From an uncultured Bacteroidales bacterium (GTDB taxonomy: Bacteria > Bacteroidota > Bacteroidia > Bacteroidales > UBA10428), in assembly GCA_964646255.1 (NCBI GenBank), contig CAZYDI010000006.1, forward strand, positions 5,142 through 69,141: a DNA stretch of 64,000 nucleotides, written 5' to 3'. The notes below the pieces were generated by a model, which was not told the DNA's origin, did no database searches, and was given only the letters and a program-made list of their open reading frames with translations. The position numbers were made by a program, and so were the translations under genes. Positions 27,677 through 45,104 of the stretch are shown one piece after another; positions within the stretch are counted from its first letter, which is position 1; every line of letters starts with the position of its first letter.

Positions 27677-27698
27677 GGTATTTAAATTTTGGTTTAAA

Positions 27699-28205: not shown

Positions 28206-28236
28206 AATTAAAATTGAATGGAAAAATTATTGTTGG

Positions 28237-28668
28237 TTAGTTAATTTTTTCATGTGAAGCATAGGTGCCAATTAGCTGAAGGCGGATATCCTCAATCCGG
28301 AATCCCGGAATGGAATGCTCCTCAAAATAGTTGCTGAGCAGTGTATTCAATTGCTCGTCCTTATAATCTTCAATCAGGTCACAATCCGAGCAATAAATAT
28401 GATGGTGCTTCTCGAGGTCGGCATCATATCTCATGTTGTCCTTGTCCGTTTTAACACGTACAATGATCTTCTTTTCCGTTAATACATCCAGTACCTTATA
28501 CACGGTGGCAACAGAAACATGCGGATGTCTCTTACGGATATATTCCAGAATCATTTCAGAGGTAGGATGATTTTTAAGCGTGATGATGGCATCCAGTACA
28601 GCAAGGCGTTGCGGGGTAACCTTCAGGCTATTATCGGTAAGGCATTTACTGACAAAATGAATATTCAT
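28237..28668 (-). CDS. Fur family transcriptional regulator (Fur/PerR-like, paralog 1)
   Basis: The 143-aa protein has the winged helix LKVTPQRLAVLDAI...VATVYKVL and the metal motif HHHIYCSDC. It keeps only one CxxC pair. Confidence 0.88.
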   Translation of the reverse strand: MNIHFVSKCLTDNSLKVTPQRLAVLDAIITLKNHPTSEMILEYIRKRHPHVSVATVYKVLDVLTEKKIIVRVKTDKDNMRYDADLEKHHHIYCSDCDLIEDYKDEQLNTLLSNYFEEHSIPGFRIEDIRLQLIGTYASHEKIN

Positions 28669-28684
28669 TGGAAATAAAACTAGG

Positions 28685-28699
28685 TGATAATAATTCTCA
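28685..28699 (-). promoter_or_regulatory. Near-consensus 7-1-7 Fur box upstream of the fur(1)-bfr-prx operon
   Basis: TGATAAT-A-ATTCTCA matches TGATAATnATTATCA with one mismatch. It lies 17-31 nt upstream of the fur paralog 1 start. Confidence 0.55.
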
Positions 28700-28874
28700 T
28701 CAAATAAAGTTTAAATATAAAAGGAATAATTGGTTCAACAATAGAAAAATGGTGAAATCTTCAGAATTTTTCTAAATAAACTCTAAATTATTGATATTCA
28801 AATTTCAAGGCAAATCTTTAAAAGTACTGCATTGTGCTTGCTTCGGGCAGCAGGGAGCTACCAACAGCCGGCAA

Positions 28875-29357
28875 TCATGGCAAATCCGGAAAAATGCGAA
28901 AATAATCCTTGGTATTGTCGTGCACATCTGTCCGGTGTAATAACTCGTCAACCGGCATCCATACAAACCGGCTATGCTGATTATCAGCCGGATTCAAATC
29001 GTATTTCATTGATTCAATTATGTAGGCAAGTACTACATAGTGGGTGTCAATTCCCGGTATATTAAATGTATTCTCGCCTGGATATAAATGCTCGGCAATG
29101 GTGAAAAACCGTGCACCGGAACGCGGAATAGCAATACCAAGCTCGGTTTGCGTAATTCTCATAAACTCTTTATCTATACGACGGTTCTTATAAATTCTTC
29201 CTCCGGGAACGAACCAGCAGTTTTTTGCAGGGAAATTATTTCTGTATCCCAGTAAAATTTCTCCGGATTGGTTTTTAATGATAAGGTCTATTGATACGAG
29301 CGGGCCGTTCTTTAAAAGGCTTATGAAATCATCTTTAGGCAATTTTCCTATGGTCAT
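28875..29357 (-). CDS. NUDIX hydrolase, GDP-mannose mannosyl hydrolase (NudD/WcaH)-like
   Basis: PLVSIDLIIKNQSGEILLGYRNNFPAKNCWFVPGGRIYKNRRIDKEFMRITQTELG closely parallels E. coli NudD. I prefer the start at ATG 29357 (MTIGKL...) over the 29495 extension. Confidence 0.7.
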   Translation of the reverse strand: MTIGKLPKDDFISLLKNGPLVSIDLIIKNQSGEILLGYRNNFPAKNCWFVPGGRIYKNRRIDKEFMRITQTELGIAIPRSGARFFTIAEHLYPGENTFNIPGIDTHYVVLAYIIESMKYDLNPADNQHSRFVWMPVDELLHRTDVHDNTKDYFRIFPDLP

Positions 29358-29469
29358 ACAAAGGTGGGTTACTTTTATTACAGGCAATACGGTTAAATTC
29401 ATTGCCGGAACCAAATTTAAAAAAATCTGCCGGGTTTTTTCATATTCATGACGATGCATTTGTTTTTCG

Positions 29470-29477
29470 TACTTTTG
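29470..29477 (+). promoter_or_regulatory. Candidate -7 promoter box TACTTTTG upstream of the RIC-like gene
   Basis: The sequence matches TAnnTTTG exactly. It ends 16 nt before ATG 29494. Confidence 0.4.
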
Positions 29478-29493
29478 CAGAAACAACTGCACC

Positions 29494-30219
29494 ATGTATA
29501 CTTCCGTTAAAGATTACCTGTCTCCGGATACAGAGTTGTCGGAAATTGTACTGTCTCATCCAAGGACGCTTCTACTGCTGGAACACCTTGAAATATCCGT
29601 GCCTATCCATTCCAAATCGGTGTCGAAAATTTGCAGTGAGAAAAAAATAAGCGAAGGTTTATTTGTTTCGCTGGCCAACCTGTATATGGGCAATCAAATC
29701 ACAGACAGATCGAAAATTAATATCAGCGATTTACCCGTCATCATTCAATTCCTGAAAAAAAGTCATTCTTATTATCACGAAGTATATCCACAAATTCAAG
29801 TATCCATTCAATCGCTGCAACAGGTTAACAATTCTCCCGAAATTACTATGGTTGAGAAGTTTTTCAGGGAATATTTCCTTGAAGTAAAGGAACATCTTGA
29901 CTATGAGGACGAAATCGTATTCCCTTATATTCACACCGTGTATGATTGTTTGAATAATAAAAAGCCTTTTGATCTGGTATCCTCGTATTCCGTTACCGAA
30001 TACAAGGATCATCATAACGATATAGAGGAAAAACTGAACGATTTAATGAACCTGTTGATTAAGTATCTGCCCCAAAAGAATGATATGCAGCAGCGTAGAA
30101 TCCTTTTTATGGCGCTGTCTGATGTGAATTTCGATCTGGGTATTCATTCACGTGTTGAAGAAGAAATCCTGATTCCATTGGTTGAAAAAGCAGAAGATCA
30201 ACTGGCCCGAAGAGCATGA
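29494..30219 (+). CDS. RIC/YtfE/ScdA-like di-iron (hemerythrin-type) protein
   Basis: The 241-aa protein is collinear with E. coli YtfE. Matching segments are LSEIVLSHPRT (N-domain), HSYYHEVYPQI, EHLDYEDEIVFPYI, YKDHHNDIEEKL and IHSRVEEEILIPLV. The YtfE CCGG motif is replaced by VPIH. Confidence 0.75.
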   Translation: MYTSVKDYLSPDTELSEIVLSHPRTLLLLEHLEISVPIHSKSVSKICSEKKISEGLFVSLANLYMGNQITDRSKINISDLPVIIQFLKKSHSYYHEVYPQIQVSIQSLQQVNNSPEITMVEKFFREYFLEVKEHLDYEDEIVFPYIHTVYDCLNNKKPFDLVSSYSVTEYKDHHNDIEEKLNDLMNLLIKYLPQKNDMQQRRILFMALSDVNFDLGIHSRVEEEILIPLVEKAEDQLARRA

Positions 30220-30797
30220 ATAAAGTAAATCATATTATCATTGTTGAGTCGTCTCATTTGCTTTATGAGGGATTGGTGCAGGTAATCTCGAAATCCGGAT
30301 TGAATGCGCATATCAGGCAAACTGCCAGTTTAGGTGATGCGGAAAAGCAAATAAGCATAAAGCCGGATAGCATTGTAATCATTAACCCATCGCTGGTTCA
30401 ATACAATACAAAGGAGTTTCACCACTTAAAAAATGCCTGGGATGGTGTTAAATGGATTGGCCTTGTATATTTGCATTTTGATTACCAGGTACTTGACTTA
30501 TTCGACGGCATTATTAGTATTTCCGACACCCCTTCTGTAATAGTTTCCACCCTTAAAAGGGTTCTTTTATCGGAGTCAAAAATACCCGATGTCACTGAAG
30601 ATGTGCTGAGTGATCGCGAAACGGAAGTGCTGAAGCTATTGGCCAAAGGGATGTCAAATAAGGAAATAGGCGATGAACTGAATATCTCTGTGAACACCGT
30701 TATCACGCACAGGAAAAAAATATCACAGAAAACGGGTATAAAAACGGTTTCAGGCCTGACTATATATGCAGTTGTGAATAAACTTATTATCCTGTAA
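30216..30797 (+). CDS. LuxR/NarL-type regulator with degenerate (pseudo-)receiver domain
   Basis: The C-terminal GerE HTH reads LSDRETEVLKLLAKGMSNKEIGDELNISVNTVITHRKKI. The N-terminal receiver-like fold has ES in place of the DD pair and IINPS in place of the phospho-Asp. Its start overlaps the upstream stop (ATGA). Confidence 0.8.
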   Translation: MNKVNHIIIVESSHLLYEGLVQVISKSGLNAHIRQTASLGDAEKQISIKPDSIVIINPSLVQYNTKEFHHLKNAWDGVKWIGLVYLHFDYQVLDLFDGIISISDTPSVIVSTLKRVLLSESKIPDVTEDVLSDRETEVLKLLAKGMSNKEIGDELNISVNTVITHRKKISQKTGIKTVSGLTIYAVVNKLIIL

Positions 30798-30802
30798 ACC
30801 GT

Positions 30803-30835
30803 GGCTGTTTATCCCCTGTTTTGATGATAACAGCC
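30803..30835 (+). terminator. Weak candidate terminator hairpin after the LuxR gene
   Basis: GGCTGTT(T)AT pairs with ATAACAGCC with one bulge. The downstream T tract is poor. Confidence 0.25.
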
Positions 30836-30880
30836 AAATCTTTCATTCATTTAAGGTATTTCAGCTTAATACTACAACAA

Positions 30881-30888
30881 TACTTTTG
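30881..30888 (+). promoter_or_regulatory. Candidate -7 promoter box TACTTTTG upstream of porin-feoAB
   Basis: The sequence matches TAnnTTTG exactly. It sits 8 nt before ATG 30897 and 20 nt before ATG 30909. Confidence 0.4.
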
Positions 30889-30896
30889 CATTGACT

Positions 30897-32045
30897 ATGA
30901 ACGCAGGAATGAAAAAATCATATACTATTGCCCTGGGCCTTTTCATTGCCTTTTCGGTTAATGCCCAGGATACTTTGAACAGAAGCCCTTTTCTCGCTGA
31001 AGCTTCATACACAGGTGACAATGCCGCCAATCTTGATGGAGGCATAAAAACAGGATATGCCTATTTGGGAATGGTCAACCTCAGCCTGTTTTTTGATTTT
31101 GAAAAAGCAGGACTGTGGAAGGGCGGTTCCGTTTTTATACATGCTGCCAATACACATGGCGCTGTTCCATCGGCAAAAATGTTTGGTGATGCACAGGTGG
31201 CTTCGAATATTGAAGCCGGAAATCATACCTATGTCCAGGAACTATACTACAAACAGACTTTAGGAAAGGTAGAACTCACCATCGGATTGCAGGATCTTAA
31301 TGTTGAATTTGTTAACTCCGGCTATGGCGCATTGTTTCTGAACAGCTCATTTGGAATTATGCCTGTGATTTCGGCAAATTTAGCAGCCCCTATTTTTCCA
31401 CTGACTTCACCCGGGTTCACTACCAGGATAAACATCAATGAAAGATCAACCTGGCTTGTTGCTTTATATGACGGCTGTCCTACCGGTGTTGATGACAATC
31501 CAAACAATCTGAAATGGCAATTCAATTCGGGCGATGGATTACTGGCCATAACAGAGTATCAGCGGACCCTTCAAATTAACCGGCATCAGGGATTATATAA
31601 GATTGGTCTATTTTCGCACAACCATGTTATTCAAAAAGCATTTGGTGAAGCGTTGCCCGATTCACTCAACCGGATCATCGCAGGGGCATATGTCCTGGTC
31701 GACCAGGTTATATGGGAAAGAAATGAAAAGAGCCTGGGAATATTTACGCAAGCGGGCTACAGCCCTTCCGGATACAGTGCAAATGATGTATATGTTGGGA
31801 TGGGATTAAACATGGGTGGATTTTTAAGCAAAAAGAAGAACGATGTATTGGGTTTGGCAGTTGCGCATGCTCACTATACAGGGGGTACAGGCAGCGAAAC
31901 GAGCGTAGAACTTACCTGGTTAAAACCAGTTCATAAGCATATTACCATTCAACCCGATATCCAATACATCATTCAACCTTCAGGCAAGGTTGGTGGGTTA
32001 AGAAATGTTTTTGCAGGAGTATTAAGGATTGCTTTATCATTTTAG
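30897..32045 (+). CDS. OprB-like (carbohydrate-selective-type) outer-membrane porin
   Basis: The protein is about 380 aa with a signal peptide (MKKSYTIALGLFIAFSVNAQ). OprB-family-like segments include GGIKTGYAYLGMVNLSL and LGLAVAHA, and the C-terminus ends ...LRIALSF. ATG 30909 is an alternative start. Confidence 0.65.
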   Translation: MNAGMKKSYTIALGLFIAFSVNAQDTLNRSPFLAEASYTGDNAANLDGGIKTGYAYLGMVNLSLFFDFEKAGLWKGGSVFIHAANTHGAVPSAKMFGDAQVASNIEAGNHTYVQELYYKQTLGKVELTIGLQDLNVEFVNSGYGALFLNSSFGIMPVISANLAAPIFPLTSPGFTTRININERSTWLVALYDGCPTGVDDNPNNLKWQFNSGDGLLAITEYQRTLQINRHQGLYKIGLFSHNHVIQKAFGEALPDSLNRIIAGAYVLVDQVIWERNEKSLGIFTQAGYSPSGYSANDVYVGMGLNMGGFLSKKKNDVLGLAVAHAHYTGGTGSETSVELTWLKPVHKHITIQPDIQYIIQPSGKVGGLRNVFAGVLRIALSF

Positions 32046-32057
32046 GAGAGTTAAAAA

Positions 32058-34523
32058 ATGCAGTTGTCAGATTTAGCGAATAATCAGAAAGCAGTTATTA
32101 CCAGGGTATTGGGACACGGTTCATTTCGTAAACGTATTACCGAAATGGGTTTTGTAAAAGGGAAAGAGGTTACCGTTATAAAGAATGCACCATTGCAGGA
32201 TCCGATCGAATACGAAATAATGGGTTATCATGTATCATTAAGGCGGGCTGAAGCCTCCTTAATTGAAATTGCCATGGATAATTACAACAAAACCGATTTG
32301 TTGGCATATGAAGGCACCATCATTGAGAACCGGCTGAAGATTTCAACGCGCGGGAAAACCAAAACAATCCAGGTGGCGTTGGTGGGAAATCCCAACAGTG
32401 GAAAAACCACCCTTTTCAATCTTGCCTCAGGTTTGCATGAGCGGGTTGGGAACTATGGTGGTGTAACGATAGAAGCCAAGGAGGCAACATTCAGGAAAGA
32501 TAAGTATACCCTTAAAATTACCGACCTCCCGGGAACATATTCCATTACCGAATATACACCGGAAGAACTGTTTGTACGAAAACACATCCTTGAAAACAAA
32601 CCGGATATCGTAATTAATGTAGTTGATGGCTCCAACCTGGAACGCAACCTGCTGCTGACTACACAACTCATCGACATGAACATCAAGGTGATTATTGCCC
32701 TGAATATGTATGATGAAATGCAGGGGCAGGGGATCATGCTTGATCATTTACAACTTGCCAGATTGCTTGGGATACCTGTTGTACCAACTGTTGCTGTTAA
32801 AGGTCAGGGCCTGCAGGAACTGTTGTCCAAAATAATTGAGGTATATGAAGACCGGGATCCGGTAGTAAGGCATATTCACATTAACTATGGCAGCACGATT
32901 GAAGAATCGATAAGCCGGATACAAGGTGAGATAAGAAAAAGCAGGGTGAATCCGATGAGGCTGTCAACGCGCTACCTGGCAATCAAACTGCTCGAAAACG
33001 ATAAAACAACGAAGCAATCCCTATTGGGTCATATCAATTTTGACCGTATAGAGATGATCAGCAATGCTGAAATCCAAAAGCTTGAAAAGGAGTTTCGCGA
33101 AAAGGCCGAAACAACCATTATTGATGCCAAGTATGGTTTTATTGCAGGTGCGTTGGGAGAAACCTGTACACGGGTATCGGGAAAATCAAAGAAGAAGTGG
33201 GTGATTGATGACCTGCTTACCCATAAATACTGGGGATTCCCAATTTTCTTTGCTTTCCTTTGGCTGATGTTTCAGGCTACCTTCAGCCTGGGAAATTACC
33301 CGATGGAATGGATAGATGCCGGTGTAGCATTTGTTGGCGGACATTTAAGCAGTATTATCCCTGACGGTCCGCTTCATGATCTCATCATCGATGGTATCAT
33401 TGGTGGTGTAGGAGGAGTGATCATCTTCCTTCCCAATATTCTTATTCTGTTCTTCTTCATATCGGTTATGGAAGACACCGGGTATATGGCAAGGGTGTCA
33501 TTTATCATGGACAAGTTGATGCACAAAATGGGGCTTCATGGCAAATCATTCATTCCGTTGATTATGGGTTTTGGATGCAATGTTCCTGCTGTGATGGCTA
33601 CACGTACCCTCGAAAACCGGAAGGACAGAATTATCACCATGCTGGTTACTCCTTTCATGTCATGCAGTGCCCGTTTACCGGTTTATGTGCTGATCATTTC
33701 TGCATTTTTTACCCGCCATCAGGGCCTTGTCTTATTTTCGATATACATATTTGGTATTGTGCTGGCCATTGTGGTTGCACTTCTTTTAAAAAGAACGATG
33801 TTTTCAAGGCATGATGTTCCCTTTGTAATGGAATTACCCAAGTACCGCATCCCAACCCTTACCAACTCCTTTACCCATATGTGGTTTAAAGGTTCGCAGT
33901 ACTTACGCAAGATGGGAACGGTCATTTTAATGGCATCCATTCTTATTTGGGCATTAAGCTATTATCCAAGAAAAGTGAAATATAGCCTTGATTATGATGC
34001 TCAAACCGAACTAATTAACAAAACGGTAACCGATGAAAAGGAAAGAACTTTGCAGGTGAATGCCCTGGAACTTAAAAAAGTCTCGGAGCACCAGGAGCAA
34101 TCCTACATTGGCAGGCTAGGGCGTTATATTGAACCTGCCATACAACCCCTTGGTTTCGATTGGAAAATCGGCATCAGCATCATCACTGGTCTTGCAGCAA
34201 AAGAGATTGTTGTAGGTTCAATGGGCGTATTGTACCATGCCGAACTGGAAGCCAATGAACAGTCGGGGAGCCTGATAAAAAACCTTCAGCAGCAGGTTCA
34301 TTCATCAGGAAAACTGGAGGGACAAAAAGTTTTTACACCCCTGGTTGCATTCGGATTTATGCTCTTTGTGCTGATATACTTTCCCTGTGTTGCTGTAATA
34401 GCAGCCATAAAGAAAGAATCAAACTGGAAATATGCATTATTTGCTATGTTTTACACAACAGCCCTGGCATGGCTTGTGGCTTTTATAACCTATCAGGCAG
34501 GTAACCTGATCACTAAAATATAA
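32058..34523 (+). CDS. feoB: Fused FeoA-FeoB ferrous iron transporter
   Basis: The 821-aa protein starts with a FeoA SH3-like domain (VITRVLGHGSFRKRITEMGFVKGKEVTVI). A G-domain (GNPNSGKTTLFN, DLPG) and the polytopic FeoB membrane domain follow. Confidence 0.93.
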   Translation: MQLSDLANNQKAVITRVLGHGSFRKRITEMGFVKGKEVTVIKNAPLQDPIEYEIMGYHVSLRRAEASLIEIAMDNYNKTDLLAYEGTIIENRLKISTRGKTKTIQVALVGNPNSGKTTLFNLASGLHERVGNYGGVTIEAKEATFRKDKYTLKITDLPGTYSITEYTPEELFVRKHILENKPDIVINVVDGSNLERNLLLTTQLIDMNIKVIIALNMYDEMQGQGIMLDHLQLARLLGIPVVPTVAVKGQGLQELLSKIIEVYEDRDPVVRHIHINYGSTIEESISRIQGEIRKSRVNPMRLSTRYLAIKLLENDKTTKQSLLGHINFDRIEMISNAEIQKLEKEFREKAETTIIDAKYGFIAGALGETCTRVSGKSKKKWVIDDLLTHKYWGFPIFFAFLWLMFQATFSLGNYPMEWIDAGVAFVGGHLSSIIPDGPLHDLIIDGIIGGVGGVIIFLPNILILFFFISVMEDTGYMARVSFIMDKLMHKMGLHGKSFIPLIMGFGCNVPAVMATRTLENRKDRIITMLVTPFMSCSARLPVYVLIISAFFTRHQGLVLFSIYIFGIVLAIVVALLLKRTMFSRHDVPFVMELPKYRIPTLTNSFTHMWFKGSQYLRKMGTVILMASILIWALSYYPRKVKYSLDYDAQTELINKTVTDEKERTLQVNALELKKVSEHQEQSYIGRLGRYIEPAIQPLGFDWKIGISIITGLAAKEIVVGSMGVLYHAELEANEQSGSLIKNLQQQVHSSGKLEGQKVFTPLVAFGFMLFVLIYFPCVAVIAAIKKESNWKYALFAMFYTTALAWLVAFITYQAGNLITKI

Positions 34524-34526
34524 GGT

Positions 34527-34700
34527 ATGGTGCAGGATATTCTCACATTACTCATTGTCTTTGCCGTTGCAATTGCGGTAATAGTAAATGTTGCACGTTC
34601 GGTTATGGTGAAAAAAGCATCGGGTGCCTGCAGCGGCTGTGCAATGAAGAAGGCCGGCGATGCAGTTTGCAAAACAAATCATGCTTCAACCGTTGATTAA
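34527..34700 (+). CDS. FeoB-associated Cys-rich small membrane protein (57 aa)
   Basis: This ORF is below the size cut-off of the ORF track. It encodes MVQDILTLLIVFAVAIAVIVNVARSVMVKKASGACSGCAMKKAGDAVCKTNHASTVD, with one TM helix and a CxxC. Its start lies 3 nt after the feoB stop. Confidence 0.7.
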   Translation: MVQDILTLLIVFAVAIAVIVNVARSVMVKKASGACSGCAMKKAGDAVCKTNHASTVD

Positions 34701-34720
34701 AAGGAAGTCAGAACATCCCT

Positions 34721-34740
34721 GATAATGATGGTTGAAAATT
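34721..34740 (+). promoter_or_regulatory. Partial Fur-box-like sequence upstream of the TBDR-heme operon promoter
   Basis: In GATAATGATGGTTGAAAATT, the first 9 nt match the 19-bp Fur consensus GATAATGAT. Overall the match is about 11 of 19. It lies 13 nt upstream of the -7 box at 34753. Confidence 0.3.
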
Positions 34741-34752
34741 GGCCCAAACGAT

Positions 34753-34760
34753 TATCTTTG
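34753..34760 (+). promoter_or_regulatory. Candidate -7 promoter box TATCTTTG
   Basis: The sequence matches TAnnTTTG exactly. It ends 16 nt before ATG 34777. Confidence 0.4.
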
Positions 34761-34776
34761 CAAAAAAGCTTTAATA

Positions 34777-35118
34777 ATGTTCGTTTTTGGGCTTTTCTCG
34801 AGTTATATACCTTATTTGGTTATTCTGGTTACGTATTCGGTATACCTGCTGCTTAGTCTGGGGGTTAAGCAACAGGATCCTGTTTCTGCTGTTCAATCCG
34901 CTGAAAAGTATATTCATGTTACCGCCAAAGCAGAATTATCGGTAAAAGACAATGACTATGTTGCATTTGCTGATGACATTTTCATTTCTTCAGAAAATGA
35001 AAGGCTGACCATACCTGAACTTAGCAAACTGCTCTATGTTGAATGCCGTACGGAAAAGTTCCTGATACTTTTCAAGGGTAATCATATTTTCTCACGCCCG
35101 CCTCCATTTGCTGCCTGA
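34777..35118 (+). CDS. Hypothetical N-terminally anchored protein leading the TBDR operon
   Basis: The 113-aa product runs from ATG 34777. The TTG at 34732 in the ORF track lies upstream of the predicted promoter. It has one or two N-terminal TM helices, and I recognise no family. Confidence 0.45.
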   Translation: MFVFGLFSSYIPYLVILVTYSVYLLLSLGVKQQDPVSAVQSAEKYIHVTAKAELSVKDNDYVAFADDIFISSENERLTIPELSKLLYVECRTEKFLILFKGNHIFSRPPPFAA

Positions 35119-35198
35119 ACAACCTTTATTACCAACACGATCTGCCATGTTTTATCGTTTGTCGGATCACTGCAGCATTTACCCTAAAACATACTTTA

Positions 35199-37286
35199 AT
35201 GGAGAAAAACTATTACGTATTTATAGCACTGCTTTTCATATTGCTGTTACCTGCCAAAGGACAAGACCCTCCGCTTGAGGGCACTTCGGATTCTTCTGTT
35301 GTTGTCCTTGAAAACATTGTGGTGAGTGCATCAAAAATGAACCTCAAGGTTAAAGAGATGCCGGCCTCTGTATCTATCGTATCGGCAAAGGCAATAAGGC
35401 TGAATGAAATAGGCAGCCTTCACAGTATCAACACACTGGTCCCCAATTTTGCAATGCCCGAATACGGATCAAAACTAACATCGCCGGTTTACATCAGGGG
35501 TATAGGATCACGCATTAATGCGCCGTCGATAGGGTTATATGTTGATAATGTTCCCTATTTTGATAAATCAACATTCAGTCTTGATTTGTTCGACATTGAG
35601 CACATTGAGGTGCTCAGGGGTCCTCAGGGCACACTTTACGGGCGTAACAGCATGGGTGGGATGATAAACATTACCACCCGGTCGCCCATGGAAAAGCAGG
35701 GTGGACATATAGGAGTTACTTTGGCCACATATGGCAATTACCGGGTTGAAGGTGGTTACTACGGCAAAATTAACAATGATGCAGCCGTTTCATTGTCAGC
35801 ACGATACCAGCACAGGGATGGTTTTTTTACAAACCGGTACCTCGATGAAAAGGTGGATGAACTTAATTCATTTGCCTTGAGAAACAGGCTGGTATATAAG
35901 CTTAGCAGGGAAATTTCACTCGAGAATATTGCCGGATTTGAGTGGAGCAGGCAGGGCGGATACCCGTATGCCATTTATAATGATTCACTGAAAACCCTGG
36001 ATGCTGTGCGCTACAATCAAAAAAGCTCCTATGACCGGAATATGTTCTCCGATGCCTTAATTTTCAAATACGCAAAACCAACATGGGAAATAAGCAACAG
36101 CCTTTCATATCAATATTTCGATGATGTTCAGAGAATCGACCAGGATTTTTCTACCGACTCCTTGTATTTTGCAAAGCAAACACAAAAACAGAAAATGGTT
36201 TCAAACGAGTTGTCGGCCCGGTCAAAGGGAGACGGTACATTTAAATGGGTCCTTGGCGGTTTTGGTTTATTACAATCATTCAGCAACCTGGTGGATGTTG
36301 ATGTATACAACATTAACCAATGGTATGTGAAGGATTACAATACCAACCTCAGGGGATTCGCATTCTTCGGACAATTGTCTGTAAAAATACAGCCAAACCT
36401 TGTGTTAACCGGCGGAATTCGTTATGATTACGAACAATCGGAACTCGAATATGCTTATTACGGTCAACGCGGAATCAATGAACTCCCTGCCATAGACACG
36501 GTTTACCCTGTTTTGAAGGACCATGTAATGCTGCCCAAAGTTGCCCTTACCTACAAGTTTGGGAACACCAACATATATGCATCTTATTCAACAGGATATA
36601 AACCCGGGGGATTTAATTCCACGTCGGATTTGCCCGATAGCCTCTTAAGGTTTAAACACGAGAATAGCCACAACTTTGAAGCCGGTATCAAATCGTCCTT
36701 GTTCGAAAACCTTATATACACCGATTTCGCATTGTTTTTTACCCGCATGGAAAACCAGCAAATTTATCGTACGGCTCCCAATGGCAGGGGATCATACCTT
36801 CATAACTCGGGATTATCTGAAAATACAGGGTTCGAAATATCCGTCCGCAATAAGGAATTTCACGGATTTGAAGCTATGGTAGCTTATGGTTATACGCAAT
36901 CCAAAATAATTAAGTATGTTCAGGACGCTGCCATCAATTTCAATAACCATTATACTCCTTACATTCCCCGCCATACAATGGCAGTGCAGTTAACCAAAAG
37001 GGTGAAATTAAAGAATAATCAAATTGCCAACGAGGCTCTTTTTAACGTAGTATTCCATCAATCGGGAATCACCTATTGGGATTTAAAGAATAACTTCGCT
37101 GAAGAGCGCTATCAGTTGTTTGATGCCAAAATAATATTAACGCGAAATAACATTCAGGTGGATTTTTGGGGCAGGAATTTGCTGAACACCCGGTATAAAT
37201 CTTTCCTTTTTGAAGCCAACAATAAAGTGTATGCCCAAAAGGGCAGGCCTTTTCAGGCAGGGGTGAATGTTACTGTAAAGTTTTAA
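35199..37286 (+). CDS. TonB-dependent receptor (iron-chelate/heme class)
   Basis: The 695-aa protein has a signal peptide and a plug domain (LENIVVSASK TonB-box region, IEVLRGPQGTLYGRNSMGGMINI). A beta-barrel follows, with a terminal ...AGVNVTVKF. Confidence 0.9.
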   Translation: MEKNYYVFIALLFILLLPAKGQDPPLEGTSDSSVVVLENIVVSASKMNLKVKEMPASVSIVSAKAIRLNEIGSLHSINTLVPNFAMPEYGSKLTSPVYIRGIGSRINAPSIGLYVDNVPYFDKSTFSLDLFDIEHIEVLRGPQGTLYGRNSMGGMINITTRSPMEKQGGHIGVTLATYGNYRVEGGYYGKINNDAAVSLSARYQHRDGFFTNRYLDEKVDELNSFALRNRLVYKLSREISLENIAGFEWSRQGGYPYAIYNDSLKTLDAVRYNQKSSYDRNMFSDALIFKYAKPTWEISNSLSYQYFDDVQRIDQDFSTDSLYFAKQTQKQKMVSNELSARSKGDGTFKWVLGGFGLLQSFSNLVDVDVYNINQWYVKDYNTNLRGFAFFGQLSVKIQPNLVLTGGIRYDYEQSELEYAYYGQRGINELPAIDTVYPVLKDHVMLPKVALTYKFGNTNIYASYSTGYKPGGFNSTSDLPDSLLRFKHENSHNFEAGIKSSLFENLIYTDFALFFTRMENQQIYRTAPNGRGSYLHNSGLSENTGFEISVRNKEFHGFEAMVAYGYTQSKIIKYVQDAAINFNNHYTPYIPRHTMAVQLTKRVKLKNNQIANEALFNVVFHQSGITYWDLKNNFAEERYQLFDAKIILTRNNIQVDFWGRNLLNTRYKSFLFEANNKVYAQKGRPFQAGVNVTVKF

Positions 37287-37291
37287 TCAGG

Positions 37292-38494
37292 ATGGAACAA
37301 AAGAATAATCCGGCCAAATTTCCGGTTCTGTTTTTTTTATACATTGCCCAATCGGTACCCATGAGTTTTTTTTCAACGGTGGTGCCGGTAATTATGCGCC
37401 AGGAGCAGTATTCGTTGCAATCGATAGGTTTGCTGCAACTCATTAAATTGCCATGGATTCTTAAATTCCTGTGGGCACCGCTGGTAGACAATTATACCTG
37501 TTCAGGCCGTCAAATTCGCAGGTGGATTATTTTTTCCGAGCTTTTTTATGCTTTCGTTATCCTTAGCGTTGGTTTCTTTAGCCTGCAAACCGATTTTGTC
37601 CTGATCATATGCCTGGTGATTATTGCTTTTATAGCATCCGCAACACAGGATATTGCCACCGATATTTATGCCATTCAACTGTTAAGTCCCACTGAACGTG
37701 GAATAGGCAACAGCTTTCAATCGGCCGGCAGCTTTGTGGGATCACTGTTGGGAACCGGAGTTCTGCTGCTTGCCTATCATTATTTTGGCTGGCATAATAT
37801 GACCTTGCTTCTGGCTTCCTTTGTGGTTTTTGCCATTGTACCCTTATTGCTGCACAAGCCCCGGCTGTCCATCACAAAAAAGAAGGAGCGCTTTACCCTG
37901 TCTGGCATTGGCACCTTTTTTGGTACCAGCGAAAGGAGGAAGCGCTTGCCTGTTTTGTTGTTCTATTATTCGGGCATCATAGGAATTCTGGCAATGATAA
38001 AGCCTTTTATGGTCGACCATGGCTATAATGTTAAACAGATCGGCTTTATGTCAGGTATCATGGGTACATCGGTTGCCGTGCTATCATCGTTTTTGGCCGC
38101 CGGAATAATGAAATTTACAGGGCGCAAAGGCGCGTTGTATCTTTTTGCTTTTATAAACCTGCTGGCTGCGATCTTCTTTTTTAGTATTTCAAAGGGAATA
38201 CCCTCGCTGGCCGAGTTATATGTTGCCATTTGCATGGTATGGGGTGCATATGGCCTGTCTTCGGTTGCTATTTACACCACAAGCATGGACATTGTCCGTA
38301 AAGGACATGAAGGCACCGATTTTACCCTGCAAATTGTCATAACACAATTAAGCGGCCTTTTCATTGCCGTAATGAGTGGTCGTGTAGGTGATAAACTAGG
38401 CTATAGCGGCGTTTTTGGAATAGAAATTATATTGGCAATAATCTCTATTTTGTTCTTACTTTACACTGTTCCGCTTAAAGCTGGCAAAAAATGA
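37292..38494 (+). CDS. MFS transporter, AmpG/RhtX/FptX-like
   Basis: The 400-aa protein has about 12 TM helices. Its N-terminal signature is LFFLYIAQSVPMSFF...LLQLIKLPWILKFLWAPLVDN. It starts 5 nt after the TBDR stop, and its own stop overlaps the hemN start. Confidence 0.8.
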   Translation: MEQKNNPAKFPVLFFLYIAQSVPMSFFSTVVPVIMRQEQYSLQSIGLLQLIKLPWILKFLWAPLVDNYTCSGRQIRRWIIFSELFYAFVILSVGFFSLQTDFVLIICLVIIAFIASATQDIATDIYAIQLLSPTERGIGNSFQSAGSFVGSLLGTGVLLLAYHYFGWHNMTLLLASFVVFAIVPLLLHKPRLSITKKKERFTLSGIGTFFGTSERRKRLPVLLFYYSGIIGILAMIKPFMVDHGYNVKQIGFMSGIMGTSVAVLSSFLAAGIMKFTGRKGALYLFAFINLLAAIFFFSISKGIPSLAELYVAICMVWGAYGLSSVAIYTTSMDIVRKGHEGTDFTLQIVITQLSGLFIAVMSGRVGDKLGYSGVFGIEIILAIISILFLLYTVPLKAGKK

Positions 38495-39867
38495 GCATGC
38501 AAAACCTGATTGAAAAGTATGAGTTAGCTGTGCCCCGGTATACAAGCTATCCTACTGCCAATTATTTTAAGGATGGTTTTCCGGAAGATGAATATATTCA
38601 GCATATCATAGCCTCAAACCAGGTTCGGCAAAACCATCTGGCATTTTATGTGCATATACCGTTTTGCGCAAAAGTATGTTATTACTGCGGATGCAATGCA
38701 TGCATTGCCAGGAGCCCGGGCGAGGTAGGATCCTATATTGAGTGTTTGCTGAAAGAAATAAGCCTTGTTAAAAAGCATATCGATTCAAACCGGAAGATAT
38801 CTCAGATTCATTTTGGAGGAGGCACTCCAAATTCGATTGATGCCGGCCATATTGAGGAAATAATGTCAGCAATTGGCGCCGGGTTATCATACATCGGCAA
38901 TCCTGAAATTGCCATCGAGTGCAATCCTGCCTATCTCGGTTACAGTTATCTTGACAGGTTGCTGAAGCTGGGTTTTAACAGGTTCAGTTTAGGTATACAG
39001 GATTTTGACAATGATGTGCTGAAATTGGTAAACCGCTTGCCATCAGCCATTCCGGTTGCAGAATTGACTAAATACCTAAGATCGGCATCCCCTTTGGTTT
39101 CCGTTAATCTTGATTTTATTTACGGATTACCCGGACAAACCACCGATGGCTTTAGAAAGACCATTTCCGAAGCAATAGAACACAAGCCGGACAGGTTGGT
39201 AACCTTTTCCTATGCGCATGTACCCTGGCTGAAAAAGCACCAACAAATACTCGAAAAGGCCGGATTGCCCGATTCTTCACATAAGGTGGAAATGTTTCTG
39301 ACTGCCCGTGAACTTTTACAGCAATCGGGATATAATGCCATCGGACTGGATCACTATGTACTGCCTGATGATGAGCTTTACACCGCTTTTAACTGCAGGG
39401 AACTACATCGCAATTTTCAGGGTTACTGTACCCGGCGTACCACAGCGCAGGTATATGCCTTTGGTGTTTCAGGTATAAGTCAGCTTGAAAACGCTTATAT
39501 TCAAAATACAAAAGATATCAACAACTATATTCATGCCATTGGTACAGGTAGGTTACCAGTGGAAAAAGGCATCGGGGTGTCTGCCGATCAAATGATCATA
39601 CGCGATGCCATTAATGGCATTATGTGCAATAAATATCTCAACATGAAGGAGGTAAGCGAAAAGCACGGTATCACGCTGTCCGATTTTTACCGGATTACCG
39701 GTTTTGAGCCCCAAAAGCTTTCAGAACCGGTAAGCGACGGTTTGGTGAAAACAGGCAATGACACCATTACCGTCACCGAACAGGGTTCCTTATTTATCCG
39801 TAACATTGCCTCTGCATTTGATCCTGCTTTTGTACCTCGTGTGGGAACCTATTCTAAATCGCTTTAA
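38491..39867 (+). CDS. hemN: Oxygen-independent coproporphyrinogen III oxidase (radical SAM)
   Basis: The 458-aa protein carries YTSYPTANYF, the radical-SAM motif HIPFCAKVCYYCGC and HFGGGTP. Confidence 0.92.
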   Translation: MSMQNLIEKYELAVPRYTSYPTANYFKDGFPEDEYIQHIIASNQVRQNHLAFYVHIPFCAKVCYYCGCNACIARSPGEVGSYIECLLKEISLVKKHIDSNRKISQIHFGGGTPNSIDAGHIEEIMSAIGAGLSYIGNPEIAIECNPAYLGYSYLDRLLKLGFNRFSLGIQDFDNDVLKLVNRLPSAIPVAELTKYLRSASPLVSVNLDFIYGLPGQTTDGFRKTISEAIEHKPDRLVTFSYAHVPWLKKHQQILEKAGLPDSSHKVEMFLTARELLQQSGYNAIGLDHYVLPDDELYTAFNCRELHRNFQGYCTRRTTAQVYAFGVSGISQLENAYIQNTKDINNYIHAIGTGRLPVEKGIGVSADQMIIRDAINGIMCNKYLNMKEVSEKHGITLSDFYRITGFEPQKLSEPVSDGLVKTGNDTITVTEQGSLFIRNIASAFDPAFVPRVGTYSKSL

Positions 39868-39868
39868 T

Positions 39869-41245
39869 GTGGAAACGGTAAAAACTGATATTACAGTCAT
39901 TGGCGGCGGTATTACCGGACTCACCCTTGCTTACTATCTTAAGAGGGCAGGGAAAAAGGTAATTGTGCTTGAAAAAGCAAACCACTCCGGTGGCGTAATC
40001 GGAACCATCACCAGAAATGGGTTTACCTTTGAATCGGGACCCAACACGGGAGTTATCGGAAGTGTTGAACTTGTCGAACTATTTCACCATTTAAAGGGAA
40101 AGGTAGAAATGGATACGGCGAACCCTGAAGCAAAGTATCGCTGGATTCTTAAAAACGGAAAGTGGGAATCATTGCCAACCGGTCTTTTTTCGGCAGTGAA
40201 AACGCCCCTGTTCACTATGGGAGACAAGATAAGGATCCTTGGAGAGCCTTTCCGTAAACCAGGCAGCAATCCGGATGAATCGGTTGCCGGCATGGTCGTA
40301 AGACGGCTCGGTAAGTCTTTTCTCGATTATGCTGTGAATCCTTTTATTTCGGGTGTATATGGAGGTGATCCCGATACATTGATTACACGGTATGCATTGC
40401 CAAAATTGTATAACCTGGAACAAAAATACGGAAGTTTTATAAAGGGCACAATAAAGAAGCACAAGGATCCAAAAACCGAACTGGAAAAGCAGGTTACCCG
40501 TGAAGTATTTTCGGCCAAAGGAGGGTTGAAAAATCTCACTGATGCACTGGCCTCTGAAATTGGTGAAGAAAAAATAATTAAGAACTGCTTAAATGTGCAG
40601 GTTTTTCCGGTTGACAATGGCTTTTTGTGTAAAGGCACTTTGCCATCGGGTGATGGTTTCGGAATAACATCAGGCAGGGTGGTGACCACCGTGAACGGAA
40701 TTGACCTGGCAGGTTTGTTGCCATTTATCAGCGACAATCGTATCCGTTCAATTTCCAATACCCGGTATGCCAAAATTGTTCAGGCAAGTGTTTGCTATTC
40801 CAAATGGGAGGGAAAACAACTGAAAGCATTTGGCGGCCTTGTTCCTGCCAAAGAGAAACGGGAAATTCTTGGCATACTGTTCCCCTCTTCTGTTTTTTCG
40901 GGCAGAGCACCCGAAGGAGGAGCCATACTTTCGGTTTTCATGGGCGGAATAAACAATCCTTCCATATTTGAAAGGGATGATAAATATATTGAATCAATGG
41001 TACTCGCTGAAATCAGTTCAACTTTACATTGTTCCCGGAAACCCGATATGTTTAATATATTCCGTTACAGGCATGCCATTCCTCAGTATGAGATCAGTAC
41101 GGGAGAGCGGTTAAGGGCAATTGCGGGCATTCAGGAGGAATATCCCGGCCTTTTCCTTGCAGGCAATATACGTGACGGGATTGGAATGTCTGACAGGGTA
41201 AAGCAGGCAAGGCAACTGGCCGACAGTTTAACCGGTACTATATGA
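39869..41245 (+). CDS. hemY: Protoporphyrinogen oxidase (HemY-type, FAD-dependent)
   Basis: A Rossmann motif, DITVIGGGITGLTLAYYLKRAGKKVIVLE, lies directly after a GTG start at 39869. The C-terminus reads LFLAGNIRDGIGMSDRV. The ATG extension at 39758 overlaps hemN and places 37 aa ahead of the FAD motif. Confidence 0.85.
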   Translation: METVKTDITVIGGGITGLTLAYYLKRAGKKVIVLEKANHSGGVIGTITRNGFTFESGPNTGVIGSVELVELFHHLKGKVEMDTANPEAKYRWILKNGKWESLPTGLFSAVKTPLFTMGDKIRILGEPFRKPGSNPDESVAGMVVRRLGKSFLDYAVNPFISGVYGGDPDTLITRYALPKLYNLEQKYGSFIKGTIKKHKDPKTELEKQVTREVFSAKGGLKNLTDALASEIGEEKIIKNCLNVQVFPVDNGFLCKGTLPSGDGFGITSGRVVTTVNGIDLAGLLPFISDNRIRSISNTRYAKIVQASVCYSKWEGKQLKAFGGLVPAKEKREILGILFPSSVFSGRAPEGGAILSVFMGGINNPSIFERDDKYIESMVLAEISSTLHCSRKPDMFNIFRYRHAIPQYEISTGERLRAIAGIQEEYPGLFLAGNIRDGIGMSDRVKQARQLADSLTGTI

Positions 41246-42252
41246 CAAAAGCAATTGTCCTGGTAAATGTGGGGACACCCGACAAGCCCGGAATCCCTGA
41301 GGTAAGAAAATACCTGCATGAATTTCTTAACGATCCGATGGTGATTGATTTGCCATGGATCGTACGTAAAATTCTGGTGAACGGCATTATCATTCCGTTC
41401 AGGGTTCGCAAATCCACCGCACTTTATAAGCGATTATGGACACCACAGGGATCTCCGCTTAAATTTTACCTGGAAGGGTTGACGAAACAGTTACAGCAGA
41501 TGATGACGGCAAACTGCACTGTATATTCAGCCATGCGTTATGGAAATCCGTCGCTCCGGTATGTTCTTAACCGGGTATATGCTACAGGCGCAAAAGAAAT
41601 ATTCGTAATTCCACTTTTTCCCCAGTATGCCGATTCTACAACAGGCACAGTAATAAAGGAAGTTGAGGATACGGTAAAAGACCTGGATGAAAAACCATTA
41701 TTGCATTTCATGAAGCAGTTTTACAACCATCCTGCTTTTATCCGCGCATTTGCTTCAAAGATACGGGAGCAAAATCCGGCGGCATTCGACCATATCCTTT
41801 TTTCTTATCATGGCCTGCCTGTGAGCCATGTACAAAAAATCCATCCCGGCCAATCCGTCACAAGCTGTCATTGCGAAAGCAGCATGCCATCACATGGCAA
41901 ACAGTGTTATAAAGCCACATGCTATGAAACCAGCCGGATACTGGCAAACAGCATCGGACTATCGCGTGACAAATGGTCGGTGGGTTTCCAGTCGCGTCTT
42001 ACAAAAAACTGGCTTTCACCGTTCACCGATGAATTGCTTGTGCATTACGCTTCCAGAGGTGTAAAAAGAATCCTGGTTGTGGCTCCTTCATTCGTAGCTG
42101 ATTGTCTTGAAACAGTTGTTGAGATTGGTGAAGACTATCGTCAACTTTTCCTGCGTCACGGAGGTGATGAACTTGTTCTGGCAGAAAGCCTGAATGCCTC
42201 CGAAAGCTGGACAAAATCACTTGCTGAAATGATCAGTGAAATCATTCATTAG
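41242..42252 (+). CDS. hemH: Ferrochelatase
   Basis: The 336-aa protein carries VLVNVGTPD, PLFPQYADSTTG, FSYHGLP and FVADCLETVVEI. Its ATG overlaps the hemY stop. Confidence 0.93.
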   Translation: MTKAIVLVNVGTPDKPGIPEVRKYLHEFLNDPMVIDLPWIVRKILVNGIIIPFRVRKSTALYKRLWTPQGSPLKFYLEGLTKQLQQMMTANCTVYSAMRYGNPSLRYVLNRVYATGAKEIFVIPLFPQYADSTTGTVIKEVEDTVKDLDEKPLLHFMKQFYNHPAFIRAFASKIREQNPAAFDHILFSYHGLPVSHVQKIHPGQSVTSCHCESSMPSHGKQCYKATCYETSRILANSIGLSRDKWSVGFQSRLTKNWLSPFTDELLVHYASRGVKRILVVAPSFVADCLETVVEIGEDYRQLFLRHGGDELVLAESLNASESWTKSLAEMISEIIH

Positions 42253-42346
42253 TCCGCTGGTTTGAAAAACTTCATACCGGAAAATATAAATATTTCCTTC
42301 CACTGGTTTTTAACAACAATATTTGGTAATTTTATCCTTTATTAAG

Positions 42347-42361
42347 TGATAATAATTATTA
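42347..42361 (+). promoter_or_regulatory. Near-consensus 7-1-7 Fur box upstream of fur(2)-katG
   Basis: TGATAAT-A-ATTATTA matches TGATAATnATTATCA with one mismatch. It contains the perfect palindrome ATAATAATTATTAT (42349-42362). It lies 20-34 nt upstream of ATG 42381. Confidence 0.55.
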
Positions 42362-42380
42362 TTTAAAACCAGCTATAGGT

Positions 42381-42788
42381 ATGAATATCGTTCGTGATAG
42401 GTTGATACATAGTGGTTTAAAGATAACACCGCAACGAATTGCTATTTTTAATTCAGTTATCCGGCTAAATAATCATCCTACCGTAGAGCAAATTGCGGAT
42501 GACATAAGGGAGGAATATCCGAATATATCCATAGCTACCATTTACAAGGTTCTGGATACCCTGGTCGACAATGGACTTTTAAAAAGGGTTACCACTGAAA
42601 AGGATGTATCCCGTTACGATGCCATTGTAGAACCTCACCATCACATATATATATCTGACTCAAAGATCATTAAGGATTATTTCGACAGTGAGTTGAGTGA
42701 TTTACTGATATCGTATTTCAGTAAAAAAGAAATTCCCGGAATTGACATTGAAGACATTAAACTCCAAATTATTGGCCGTTCAAAATAA
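42381..42788 (+). CDS. Fur family transcriptional regulator (PerR/Fur-like, paralog 2, Cys-free)
   Basis: The 135-aa protein has LKITPQRIAIFNSV...IATIYKVL and HHHIYISDS. Both Cys of the usual CxxC are replaced, and the protein contains no Cys at all. Confidence 0.85.
   Translation: MNIVRDRLIHSGLKITPQRIAIFNSVIRLNNHPTVEQIADDIREEYPNISIATIYKVLDTLVDNGLLKRVTTEKDVSRYDAIVEPHHHIYISDSKIIKDYFDSELSDLLISYFSKKEIPGIDIEDIKLQIIGRSK

Positions 42789-45104
<2,316 letters not shown>

Follow-up and report, generated by a model that had tools for sequence, protein, structure and literature searches.

A cluster of six genes that pairs a predicted import route with the last three enzymes of heme biosynthesis was found on contig CAZYDI010000006.1 (assembly GCA_964646255.1) of an uncultured Bacteroidales bacterium, of which a stretch of 64,000 nucleotides (nt), hereafter the window, was analysed. 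The cluster consists of a short leader open reading frame (ORF), a TonB-dependent receptor (TBDR), a permease of the major facilitator superfamily (MFS) and the enzymes HemN, HemY and HemH, all encoded on the forward (+) strand:

34777-35118, + strand: leader ORF of 113 amino acids (aa), the first ORF of the cluster
35199-37286, + strand: TBDR of 695 aa with a signal peptide, plug and barrel (Plug domain)
37292-38494, + strand: MFS permease of 400 aa from the AmpG/RhtX/FptX (PAT) superfamily, in a distinct clade
38491-39867, + strand: HemN, TIGR00538 equivalog
39869-41245, + strand: HemY-type protoporphyrinogen oxidase (PPO), a flavin adenine dinucleotide (FAD) enzyme of 458 aa with a GTG start, TIGR00562
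41242-42252, + strand: HemH ferrochelatase, predicted protoporphyrin type, PF00762 and TIGR00109

The leader is separated from the receptor gene by 80 nt, the TAA stop codon of the receptor gene from the permease ATG by 5 nt, and the HemN stop codon from the HemY GTG by a single nucleotide, and the permease/HemN and HemY/HemH junctions are both ATGA overlaps. This tight packing of six genes on one strand had been described in an earlier, sequence-only reading of the locus and agrees with the ORF coordinates at every junction; family models likewise upheld its identification of the TBDR, the MFS permease, hemN, hemY and hemH. An independent gene caller returned the same six ORFs on identical public contigs. 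A scan of the region from 30 to 46 kb for promoters and terminators gave counts equal to the shuffle expectation, with no internal terminator standing out, and an Rfam scan of the sequence found no riboswitch and no other known RNA. The gene geometry and the conservation described below suggest that the six genes form an operon that is transcribed as one unit.

A profile of the MFS permease identified relatives in 346 species genomes, and the best 80 were examined as loci. These loci represent 80 species, all of them Bacteroidales-type metagenome-assembled genomes (MAGs) assigned to Paludibacter, Rikenellaceae, Marinilabiliales or unclassified Bacteroidales. When the window proteins were used as tblastn queries, a TBDR was found directly upstream of the permease in every assessable locus (68/68), and HemN, HemY and HemH were found downstream in 62 of the 63 loci that could be assessed, mostly contiguous and co-directional and with protein identities of 44-70%. 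The same linkage of receptor, permease and heme enzymes was also present in metagenome contigs with different flanks. Clustering of 1,159 ORFs from 81 loci showed that no other family occurs in more than 22 loci, and the family that does reach 22 is a sub-cluster of the leader. The module therefore recurs in essentially every related locus while the flanks differ, and has thus been held together as a unit amid changing surroundings; such an arrangement is far beyond chance. The gene order proposed from the single locus is thereby conserved, the objection that the transporters might be missing beside hemNYH in relatives is decisively contradicted, and the functional coupling of an import route to the last three heme enzymes, as first suggested, is borne out by this conserved order.

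A few loci depart from the common arrangement. In L065, L078 and L079 the order is hemN-hemH-hemY, the ferrochelatase is divergent (311-315 aa, 26% identity to HemH of the window) and a tRNA gene is located immediately upstream of the leader. In L012 and L013, hemH is shifted by 3 kb. L001, L002, L004, L007 and L009 carry an additional ORF of 85 aa between hemY and hemH, which is predicted to encode a membrane protein and has no counterpart in Pfam; this ORF and the DUF4491 gene of the gut cassette described below are unrelated to each other, and neither is present in the window.

The three enzymes belong to their families by clear margins. HemN scored 450.7 bits on TIGR00538 (cut-off 325), 142.5 bits on the HemW model and 151.7 bits on the ChuW/HutW model, and on these model scores a HemW chaperone or a heme-degrading ChuW was rejected as the identity of this protein. 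HemY scored 264.7 bits on TIGR00562 (cut-off 97.85), and its alignments to solved enzymes gave 183 bits for the Myxococcus xanthus PPO (2ivd), 171 bits for the tobacco PPO and 125 bits for Bacillus subtilis HemY (3i6d), so that by score it is closer to the PgoX than to the CgoX enzymes. HemH scored 220.2 bits on TIGR00109 (cut-off 124.6) and 301.8 bits on PF00762; human ferrochelatase is its best solved relative (77 bits, compared with 36 bits for coproporphyrin ferrochelatase), which places it closer to the protoporphyrin type (PpfC-like) than to the coproporphyrin type. A true HemN, a PgoX-like HemY and a PpfC-like HemH would therefore constitute the classical protoporphyrin branch of the pathway, starting at coproporphyrinogen III. 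A tblastn search with E. coli HemA, L, B, C, D and E found no homologue in 1.385 Mb of DNA, comprising the 80 loci and the whole 64-kb window; this indicates that the early genes are not linked to the module at these loci and is not proof of their absence from the genomes. The operon probably serves the salvage of a late heme precursor, in which coproporphyrinogen III is imported and converted to heme.

The two transporters were compared with characterised families. The receptor matched the siderophore-receptor model TIGR01783 over its full length with 120.3 bits (cut-off 223.5) and the heme-receptor model TIGR01785 with 74.2 bits (cut-off 316.9), and therefore belongs to neither family by these thresholds. 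Among solved structures, it aligns best with the yersiniabactin receptor FyuA (4epa; 111 bits over the full length). By its Plug domain and its full-length alignment with FyuA the protein is a TBDR, and the models place it in no substrate class. The permease scored 163.3 bits on the RhtX/FptX model TIGR02718 (cut-off 356), 143.1 bits on the AmpG model TIGR00901 (cut-off 350) and 102.5 bits on PRK11010 (cut-off 756), all below threshold. AmpG is its sole solved relative (96 bits), and it shares 28.9% identity with S. meliloti RhtX. Ten permease relatives sampled down to 28% identity all fell under both the AmpG and the RhtX/FptX cut-offs, and a neighbour-joining (NJ) tree, which is crude and carries no support values, placed the tetrapyrrole-linked MFS proteins in a single clade to which neither RhtX nor E. 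coli AmpG belongs. The earlier description of the permease as AmpG/RhtX/FptX-like is therefore accurate at the level of the superfamily but not at the level of either family, since the protein falls short of both cut-offs and sits in its own clade in the NJ tree. The genomic associations typical of RhtX/FptX-type permeases, namely siderophore receptor, biosynthesis and regulation genes and Fur control, were also not found; the permease is instead accompanied by HemN, HemY and HemH wherever the locus could be assessed.

These comparisons bear directly on the main alternative, in which the cluster imports an iron chelate (a xenosiderophore or metallophore), the released iron feeds ferrochelatase, and the heme genes are the end of an otherwise complete, iron-co-regulated pathway. 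This explanation keeps some weight because the nearest characterised relatives of both transporters are siderophore systems and because some Bacteroidales have a complete pathway (PMC13096392). FyuA is the best solved relative of the receptor and the siderophore-receptor subfamily its best NCBIfam model, the permease scores slightly higher as RhtX/FptX (163 bits) than as AmpG (143 bits), and rhizobactin and pyochelin are taken up by TBDR and MFS pairs of this superfamily, one annotated example of which was also encountered. However, all of the family scores are far under their cut-offs, no siderophore reductase, esterase or biosynthesis gene is linked to the module, and the import of iron would explain the linkage of HemH only, and not the invariant linkage of HemN and HemY. 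We therefore regard it as unlikely.

An exhaustive search of 1.84 billion representatives provided a graded series of permease relatives. Those with 37-46% identity are located behind a TBDR: at L102, where the permease has 37% identity, hemN-hemY-hemH lie downstream and the linkage is kept, and at L099, whose permease is in the same range of identity, the leader lies upstream. Relatives at or below 35% identity occur as a lone AmpG-like gene, as an MFS gene with two YbtPQ-like ATP-binding cassette (ABC) genes, or with a cyanobacterial siderophore receptor. As judged from the tree and the gene neighbourhoods, these data show a separate MFS clade that is tied to tetrapyrrole genes.

One branch of the permease clade, with 39% identity, has a different partner. 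In L100 and L101 (4933-9018) the permease lies behind a TBDR and a convergent HEM4 (uroporphyrinogen-III synthase-like) gene replaces hemNYH, although its assignment as HemD is weak (a Pfam match, and 48 bits on NCBIfam).

A permease clade tied to tetrapyrrole genes generally, the HemD neighbour included, would also be compatible with the import of a finished or nearly finished tetrapyrrole, such as heme, protoporphyrin IX or Zn-/Cu-coproporphyrin, with the enzymes serving a de novo pathway or remodelling the import partly. Oxidised porphyrins are the stable extracellular forms, and Bacteroidales take up heme and free porphyrins via other TBDRs, HmuR and HusB (PMC12094164). A cell that imports heme, however, would have no use for any of the three enzymes, and one that imports protoporphyrin would require HemH alone. 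The partners that never vary are instead HemN and the oxidase, also in the gut cassette described below, which lacks HemH, and the receptor scores low on heme-receptor models (74 bits, cut-off 317). The import of a finished or nearly finished tetrapyrrole is thus improbable, and the import of coproporphyrinogen III, the substrate of HemN, fits the enzymes that are kept.

The most telling line of evidence for the import of a tetrapyrrole over that of iron is a mobile cassette in bacteria of the human gut. A tblastn search of plasmids revealed that the conjugative Bacteroides xylanisolvens plasmid pFunn3_1 (L090, NZ_CP045613.1 30478-36830) carries a related module, which encodes a TBDR (32% identity to the window), an MFS permease (45%), HemN (50%) and a HemY-type PPO (48%), with a DUF4491 gene after that of the oxidase. 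Its HemN scored 416.2 bits on TIGR00538 and is a bona fide HemN. Both hemH and the leader are absent from this gut cassette, which lies inside a mobilisable insert with integrase and MobV genes. The assembly collection lists proteins identical to those of the cassette in 8,092 blocks, under names that include B. ovatus, Prevotella MAG and 'MULTISPECIES Bacteroidales', and in the five chromosomal places examined (L094-L098) the cassette is cargo between integrase, relaxase and excisionase genes. Bacteroides and Prevotella have no porphyrin macrocycle synthesis and no HemH, yet they make heme from protoporphyrin IX and iron (PMC6460266; PMC13096392). A cassette that opens with two importers and ends at protoporphyrin IX would make little sense if the cell did not obtain coproporphyrinogen III, on which HemN acts, from its surroundings. 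By sequence comparison, these data show a widespread mobile version of the module in porphyrin-auxotrophic Bacteroides. As this version keeps HemN and PPO without HemH, it also argues against an iron-chelate importer that supplies ferrochelatase.

Two regulatory signals had been noted upstream of the cluster:

34753-34760, + strand: -7 promoter box of the Bacteroidota type (TATCTTTG), an exact match 17 nt before the leader ATG
34721-34735, + strand: Fur-family 7-1-7 half-site TGATAAT-G-ATGGTTG, weak and probably not a full operator

The exact -7 box at 34753 is present in the sequence. Its strict form, TAnnTTTG, was found upstream of the leader in only 13 of 47 loci, and 34 of 44 loci had a relaxed -7 motif 8-45 nt ahead of the leader, compared with 43 of 266 control genes (p = 1e-15). 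This motif lies directly before the leader, which is therefore the first ORF of the transcript. The partial Fur-like box at 34721 was confirmed as a half-site but not as a full box, since it has four mismatches in the second half and falls outside the set of matches with two or fewer mismatches. Full 7-1-7 boxes (one mismatch) occur in the window only at 28685-28699 (TGATAATAATTCTCA) and 42347-42361 (TGATAATAATTATTA), just upstream of two Fur-family genes (28237-28668 on the minus strand and 42381-42788), and a scan of the window for Fur-family boxes gave four matches against 0.7 expected by chance. The presence of a box before each Fur-family gene suggests autoregulation. Upstream of the leaders, the classic 19-bp Fur box is marginally enriched (mean of 11.7 versus 11.0 matches), which lends something to the import of an iron chelate, whereas a full Fur box before the leader is lacking.

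The 113-aa ORF at the head of the cluster had been described as an anchored ORF of unknown function. It does have an N-terminal membrane helix but is not merely that, as it proved to be a conserved leader with an invariant C-terminal RPPP motif. Diverged homologues are encoded directly upstream of the TBDR in most loci (approximately 50) and on unrelated metagenome contigs (34777-35118 in the window, and in L002-L080, L088, L089, L099 and L102). A single-sequence search with the window leader retrieved only itself, so a profile was required, and this yielded a family of approximately 300 members that are all unannotated, feature no Pfam domain and always precede this TBDR; the window leader itself has no Pfam or NCBIfam match and no DUF2946 match. 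The N-terminal helix is conserved (MFxFGxFxTxxPYxxxxxxY), the middle is hypervariable, and RPPP is found in all of 120 members and FSRPPP in 110 of them. In 111 of the 120, RPPP lies 2-4 residues before the stop, and the window leader has FSRPPP three residues before the stop. The distance from the start to the motif has a median of 109 residues (interquartile range 107-110) with a mean column identity of only 25-33%. Within the locus ORFs, RPPP occurs in 51 of 1,159, and all 51 are leaders. Over the 120 members, two Lys or Arg residues precede the helix and 196 follow it, which predicts an anchor with its N-terminus outside and its C-terminus inside (N-out/C-in), and an AlphaFold prediction that used 51 sequences featured a confident helix at residues 5-33 (predicted local distance difference test (pLDDT) of 89-96) and no structure elsewhere.

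These features resemble those of ribosome-arresting leader peptides, being a small, co-directional first ORF located immediately upstream of the regulated genes with an N-terminal membrane segment. By this analogy, the leader is probably a candidate RAPP-like translation-arrest regulator of the downstream genes. Upstream ORFs (uORFs) with RAPP or RGPP motifs and localisation signals are enriched upstream of TonB-dependent receptors (PMC12992588), CruR governs the receptor BfrG via RAPP-dependent arrest and Rho termination (PMC9426467), and Fujiwara et al. included RPPP in a list of RAPP-like sequences but did not demonstrate that it causes arrest (PMC10987492). The leader shares with CruR/BfrG of Bordetella a small first ORF, an N-terminal localisation signal, a C-terminal motif of the loose form Arg-x-Pro-Pro near the stop and a position directly upstream of a TBDR gene (PMC9426467, PMC12992588, PMC10987492), and with MifM its N-out/C-in helix and its length of approximately 110 aa. 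It differs from the CruR/MifM/SecM/ApdA class in that its motif is RPPP instead of RAPP or RGPP, it has no CXXC or other conserved ligand site, its middle is hypervariable and its hosts are Bacteroidota, so arrest is predicted by analogy only. If the leader does arrest ribosomes, the known range of RAPP-type regulation would grow to include the RPPP motif, the Bacteroidota and an operon for cofactor salvage. In the window (35075-35225), the Pro-Pro-Phe codons at the leader end (CCUCCAUU) could form base pairs with AAUGGAG around the start of the TBDR gene, but the fold is no better than shuffles (z = -0.57), the pairing is not conserved in other loci, and masking of the TBDR start codon by the arrest site was rejected as a general mechanism. 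With respect to a possible Rho site, the spacer is only mildly C-rich (C/G 1.24 versus 1.08, p = 0.009).

The leader and receptor also vary at individual loci. At L070 (15021-17722), hemH is followed by a second, near-identical copy of the leader and a second, divergent TBDR (31% identity to the first), and the leader is therefore able to head different receptors. In nine Paludibacter loci (L006, L008, L011, L033, L038, L040, L050, L054 and L062), a NigD-like lipoprotein of approximately 252 aa takes the place of the leader, and CydA and CydB (cytochrome bd) are encoded just upstream on the same strand. This lipoprotein may act together with the TBDR by binding its ligand at the cell surface.

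In the window, the cluster is flanked on both sides by genes of iron and peroxide metabolism:

32058-34700, + strand: FeoA-FeoB fusion, an importer of ferrous iron, and a 57-aa FeoB-associated Cys-rich protein, directly upstream of the cluster
42347-45104, + strand: Fur-family box, PerR-like regulator (42381-42788) and KatG catalase-peroxidase, a heme enzyme, downstream of the cluster

The KatG ORF runs from 42795, with a likely ATG at 42831, and the PerR-KatG pair also adjoins the cluster in L069. The whole of 26969-45104 forms an iron and peroxide island around the operon that is not conserved in other species, with the order peroxiredoxin, ferritin/rubrerythrin-like protein, Fur, NUDIX, hemerythrin-domain protein, LuxR-type regulator, OprB-like porin, FeoAB fusion, FeoB-associated peptide, the operon, PerR and KatG. 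FeoAB is a plausible source of iron for ferrochelatase in this genome. In L007, L009, L025 and L026, a ResB-CcsA fusion of approximately 1,020 aa (CcsBA; cytochrome c biogenesis, heme-handling) is encoded directly upstream of the leader on the same strand, and the variable neighbours of the module are often heme users (CydAB, CcsBA and PerR-KatG).

The location of the cluster inside this island, beside FeoAB and between two Fur-family regulators, is among the observations that favour the import of an iron chelate, but the FeoAB and Fur genes beside the cluster are not conserved in the other loci. The same surroundings could also reflect mere co-regulation without any shared pathway, whereby an oxidative-stress or micro-oxic need for heme, catalase and cytochrome bd brings together the heme genes and transporters for an unrelated solute, such as a muropeptide. 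The AmpG-like character of the permease (96 bits to solved AmpG) and the PerR-KatG, peroxiredoxin and ferritin-like genes around the cluster in the window agree with this, yet it is those neighbours that are not conserved and the six-gene module that is. Moreover, Bacteroidota have a separate, lone AmpG-like MFS protein at approximately 35% identity, AmpG-type muropeptide recycling needs no outer-membrane receptor, and the module travels as self-contained cargo of mobile elements. Mere co-regulation is therefore very improbable, and explanations other than those weighed here are equally remote.

Of the two explanations put forward by the sequence-only reading, the salvage of porphyrinogens is thus the one favoured by the mobile cassette, the tetrapyrrole genes of the MFS clade and the lack of a full Fur box, and the channelling of imported iron to ferrochelatase is the weaker. 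Salvage is favoured because the linkage covers all three enzymes and not ferrochelatase alone, because a full Fur-family box, present at both regulator genes of the window, is missing from the operon, and because the MFS clade tracks tetrapyrrole genes and the neighbours often consume heme. In the proposed route, the TBDR would bring a free tetrapyrrole, of which coproporphyrinogen III is the likeliest, through the outer membrane, and the MFS permease would then carry it into the cytoplasm. There, HemN would decarboxylate coproporphyrinogen III to protoporphyrinogen IX, the HemY-type oxidase would convert this to protoporphyrin IX, and HemH would insert ferrous iron, which in this genome could come from the adjacent FeoAB, to yield heme for KatG, cytochrome bd and c-type cytochromes. 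Transcription would start from the Bacteroidota promoter before the leader, and arrest on the leader may tune expression of the downstream genes. We infer the transported molecule, the direction of import and the ribosome arrest on the leader from sequence comparisons.

Several observations weigh against this interpretation. Coproporphyrinogen is unstable in air, and the true ligand might be another tetrapyrrole. HemY-type oxidases use O2, yet most of the hosts are anaerobes and HemN is an anaerobic enzyme. For both transporters, the closest relatives that have been characterised act on iron chelates (FyuA for the receptor, with RhtX/FptX slightly above AmpG for the permease), and pairing between the arrest site and the TBDR start was rejected as a general mechanism, since its duplex energies across 51 loci are no better than those of controls. 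In addition, some Bacteroidales (P. canoris and P. cangingivalis) own the whole heme pathway (PMC13096392). With respect to oxygen, the flanking genes (PerR-KatG downstream; peroxiredoxin, ferritin-like, Fur and hemerythrin genes upstream) point to a demand for heme on exposure to oxygen or peroxide, and an oxidase that uses O2 would then no longer be at odds with a host that is otherwise anaerobic. The fuller proposal is that the module provides a dedicated route for coproporphyrinogen III across two membranes, made up of a TBDR and a new AmpG-like MFS clade, which is hard-wired to the terminal heme enzymes, is governed by an RPPP arrest leader and has a mobile derivative in gut Bacteroides and Prevotella. 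As a whole, we put this forward tentatively, as possible rather than probable.

Each part of the module has a counterpart in known systems. The combination of a TBDR with a single-component MFS permease of the same superfamily is found in RhtA/RhtX (rhizobactin 1021), FptA/FptX (pyochelin) and FyuA/YbtX (yersiniabactin), but here the partners are heme enzymes instead of siderophore biosynthesis or regulatory genes, the permease is in a separate clade and there is no full Fur box. AmpG belongs to the same MFS superfamily (PAT, Transporter Classification (TC) 2.A.1.25) and imports an anionic metabolite of approximately 0.5-1 kDa for cytoplasmic recycling; unlike AmpG, the permease of the module is always paired with a TBDR, and Bacteroidota have a distinct, lone AmpG-like gene. 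The retention of terminal enzymes in the absence of ring synthesis is known from Porphyromonas gingivalis (HemN/W, HemG and HemH, with Hus/Hmu) and from the last-three-enzyme pathway of Leishmania, and organisms of this type have been suggested to salvage coproporphyrinogen III or protoporphyrin IX (PMC12094164, PMC13096392, PMC4114063). In those organisms the enzymes are scattered, the 'HemN' is HemW-like, the oxidase is HemG and the importer is conjectural, whereas the present module unites a bona fide HemN, a HemY-type oxidase and HemH in one operon with a receptor and a permease of their own. For P. gingivalis, the salvage of coproporphyrinogen III via HemN, HemG and HemH is a theoretical hypothesis that has no dedicated importer and for which a different uptake system was proposed (PMC12094164, PMC13096392). 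The vitamin B12 loci of Bacteroidota (BtuB-BtuG) provide a further parallel, as a dedicated TBDR scavenges a complex tetrapyrrole cofactor made by other microbes (PMC10404256). They differ in that the inner-membrane step here is an MFS permease and not the BtuCD ABC transporter, most loci have no surface lipoprotein (the NigD-like one is confined to Paludibacter), and the imported molecule would be an intermediate that still needs three enzymes.

No description of the module was found in the literature searched, including recent reviews of heme biosynthesis and of heme acquisition by Bacteroidota, nor was a coproporphyrinogen importer or any account of the gut-cassette accessions. Growth of B. 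ruminicola on porphyrinogens was reportedly observed by Caldwell et al. in 1965. The TBDR, MFS, HemN, HemY and HemH families are all known; what is new, as predicted from sequence, is an apparent substrate class for the MFS superfamily, the RPPP leader and the mobile gut derivative.

Heme auxotrophy is common in Bacteroidales and many environmental lineages, and their 'orphan' late heme enzymes have been puzzling for decades. The module described here offers candidate importers that are physically tied to these late enzymes. If the proposed role is true, the module would contain the first porphyrinogen importer identified in bacteria, and cross-feeding on heme precursors, and not on heme alone, would be common and transferable in anoxic communities and in the gut. 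Because the cassette occurs in gut Bacteroides that can be cultured, on mobile elements that are found in thousands of assemblies, the salvage hypothesis is open to direct testing. Coproporphyrins are major faecal and biliary porphyrins, hence the relevance of such a route to gut ecology, and the module also bears on nanaerobic respiration and catalase activity in 'anaerobes'.

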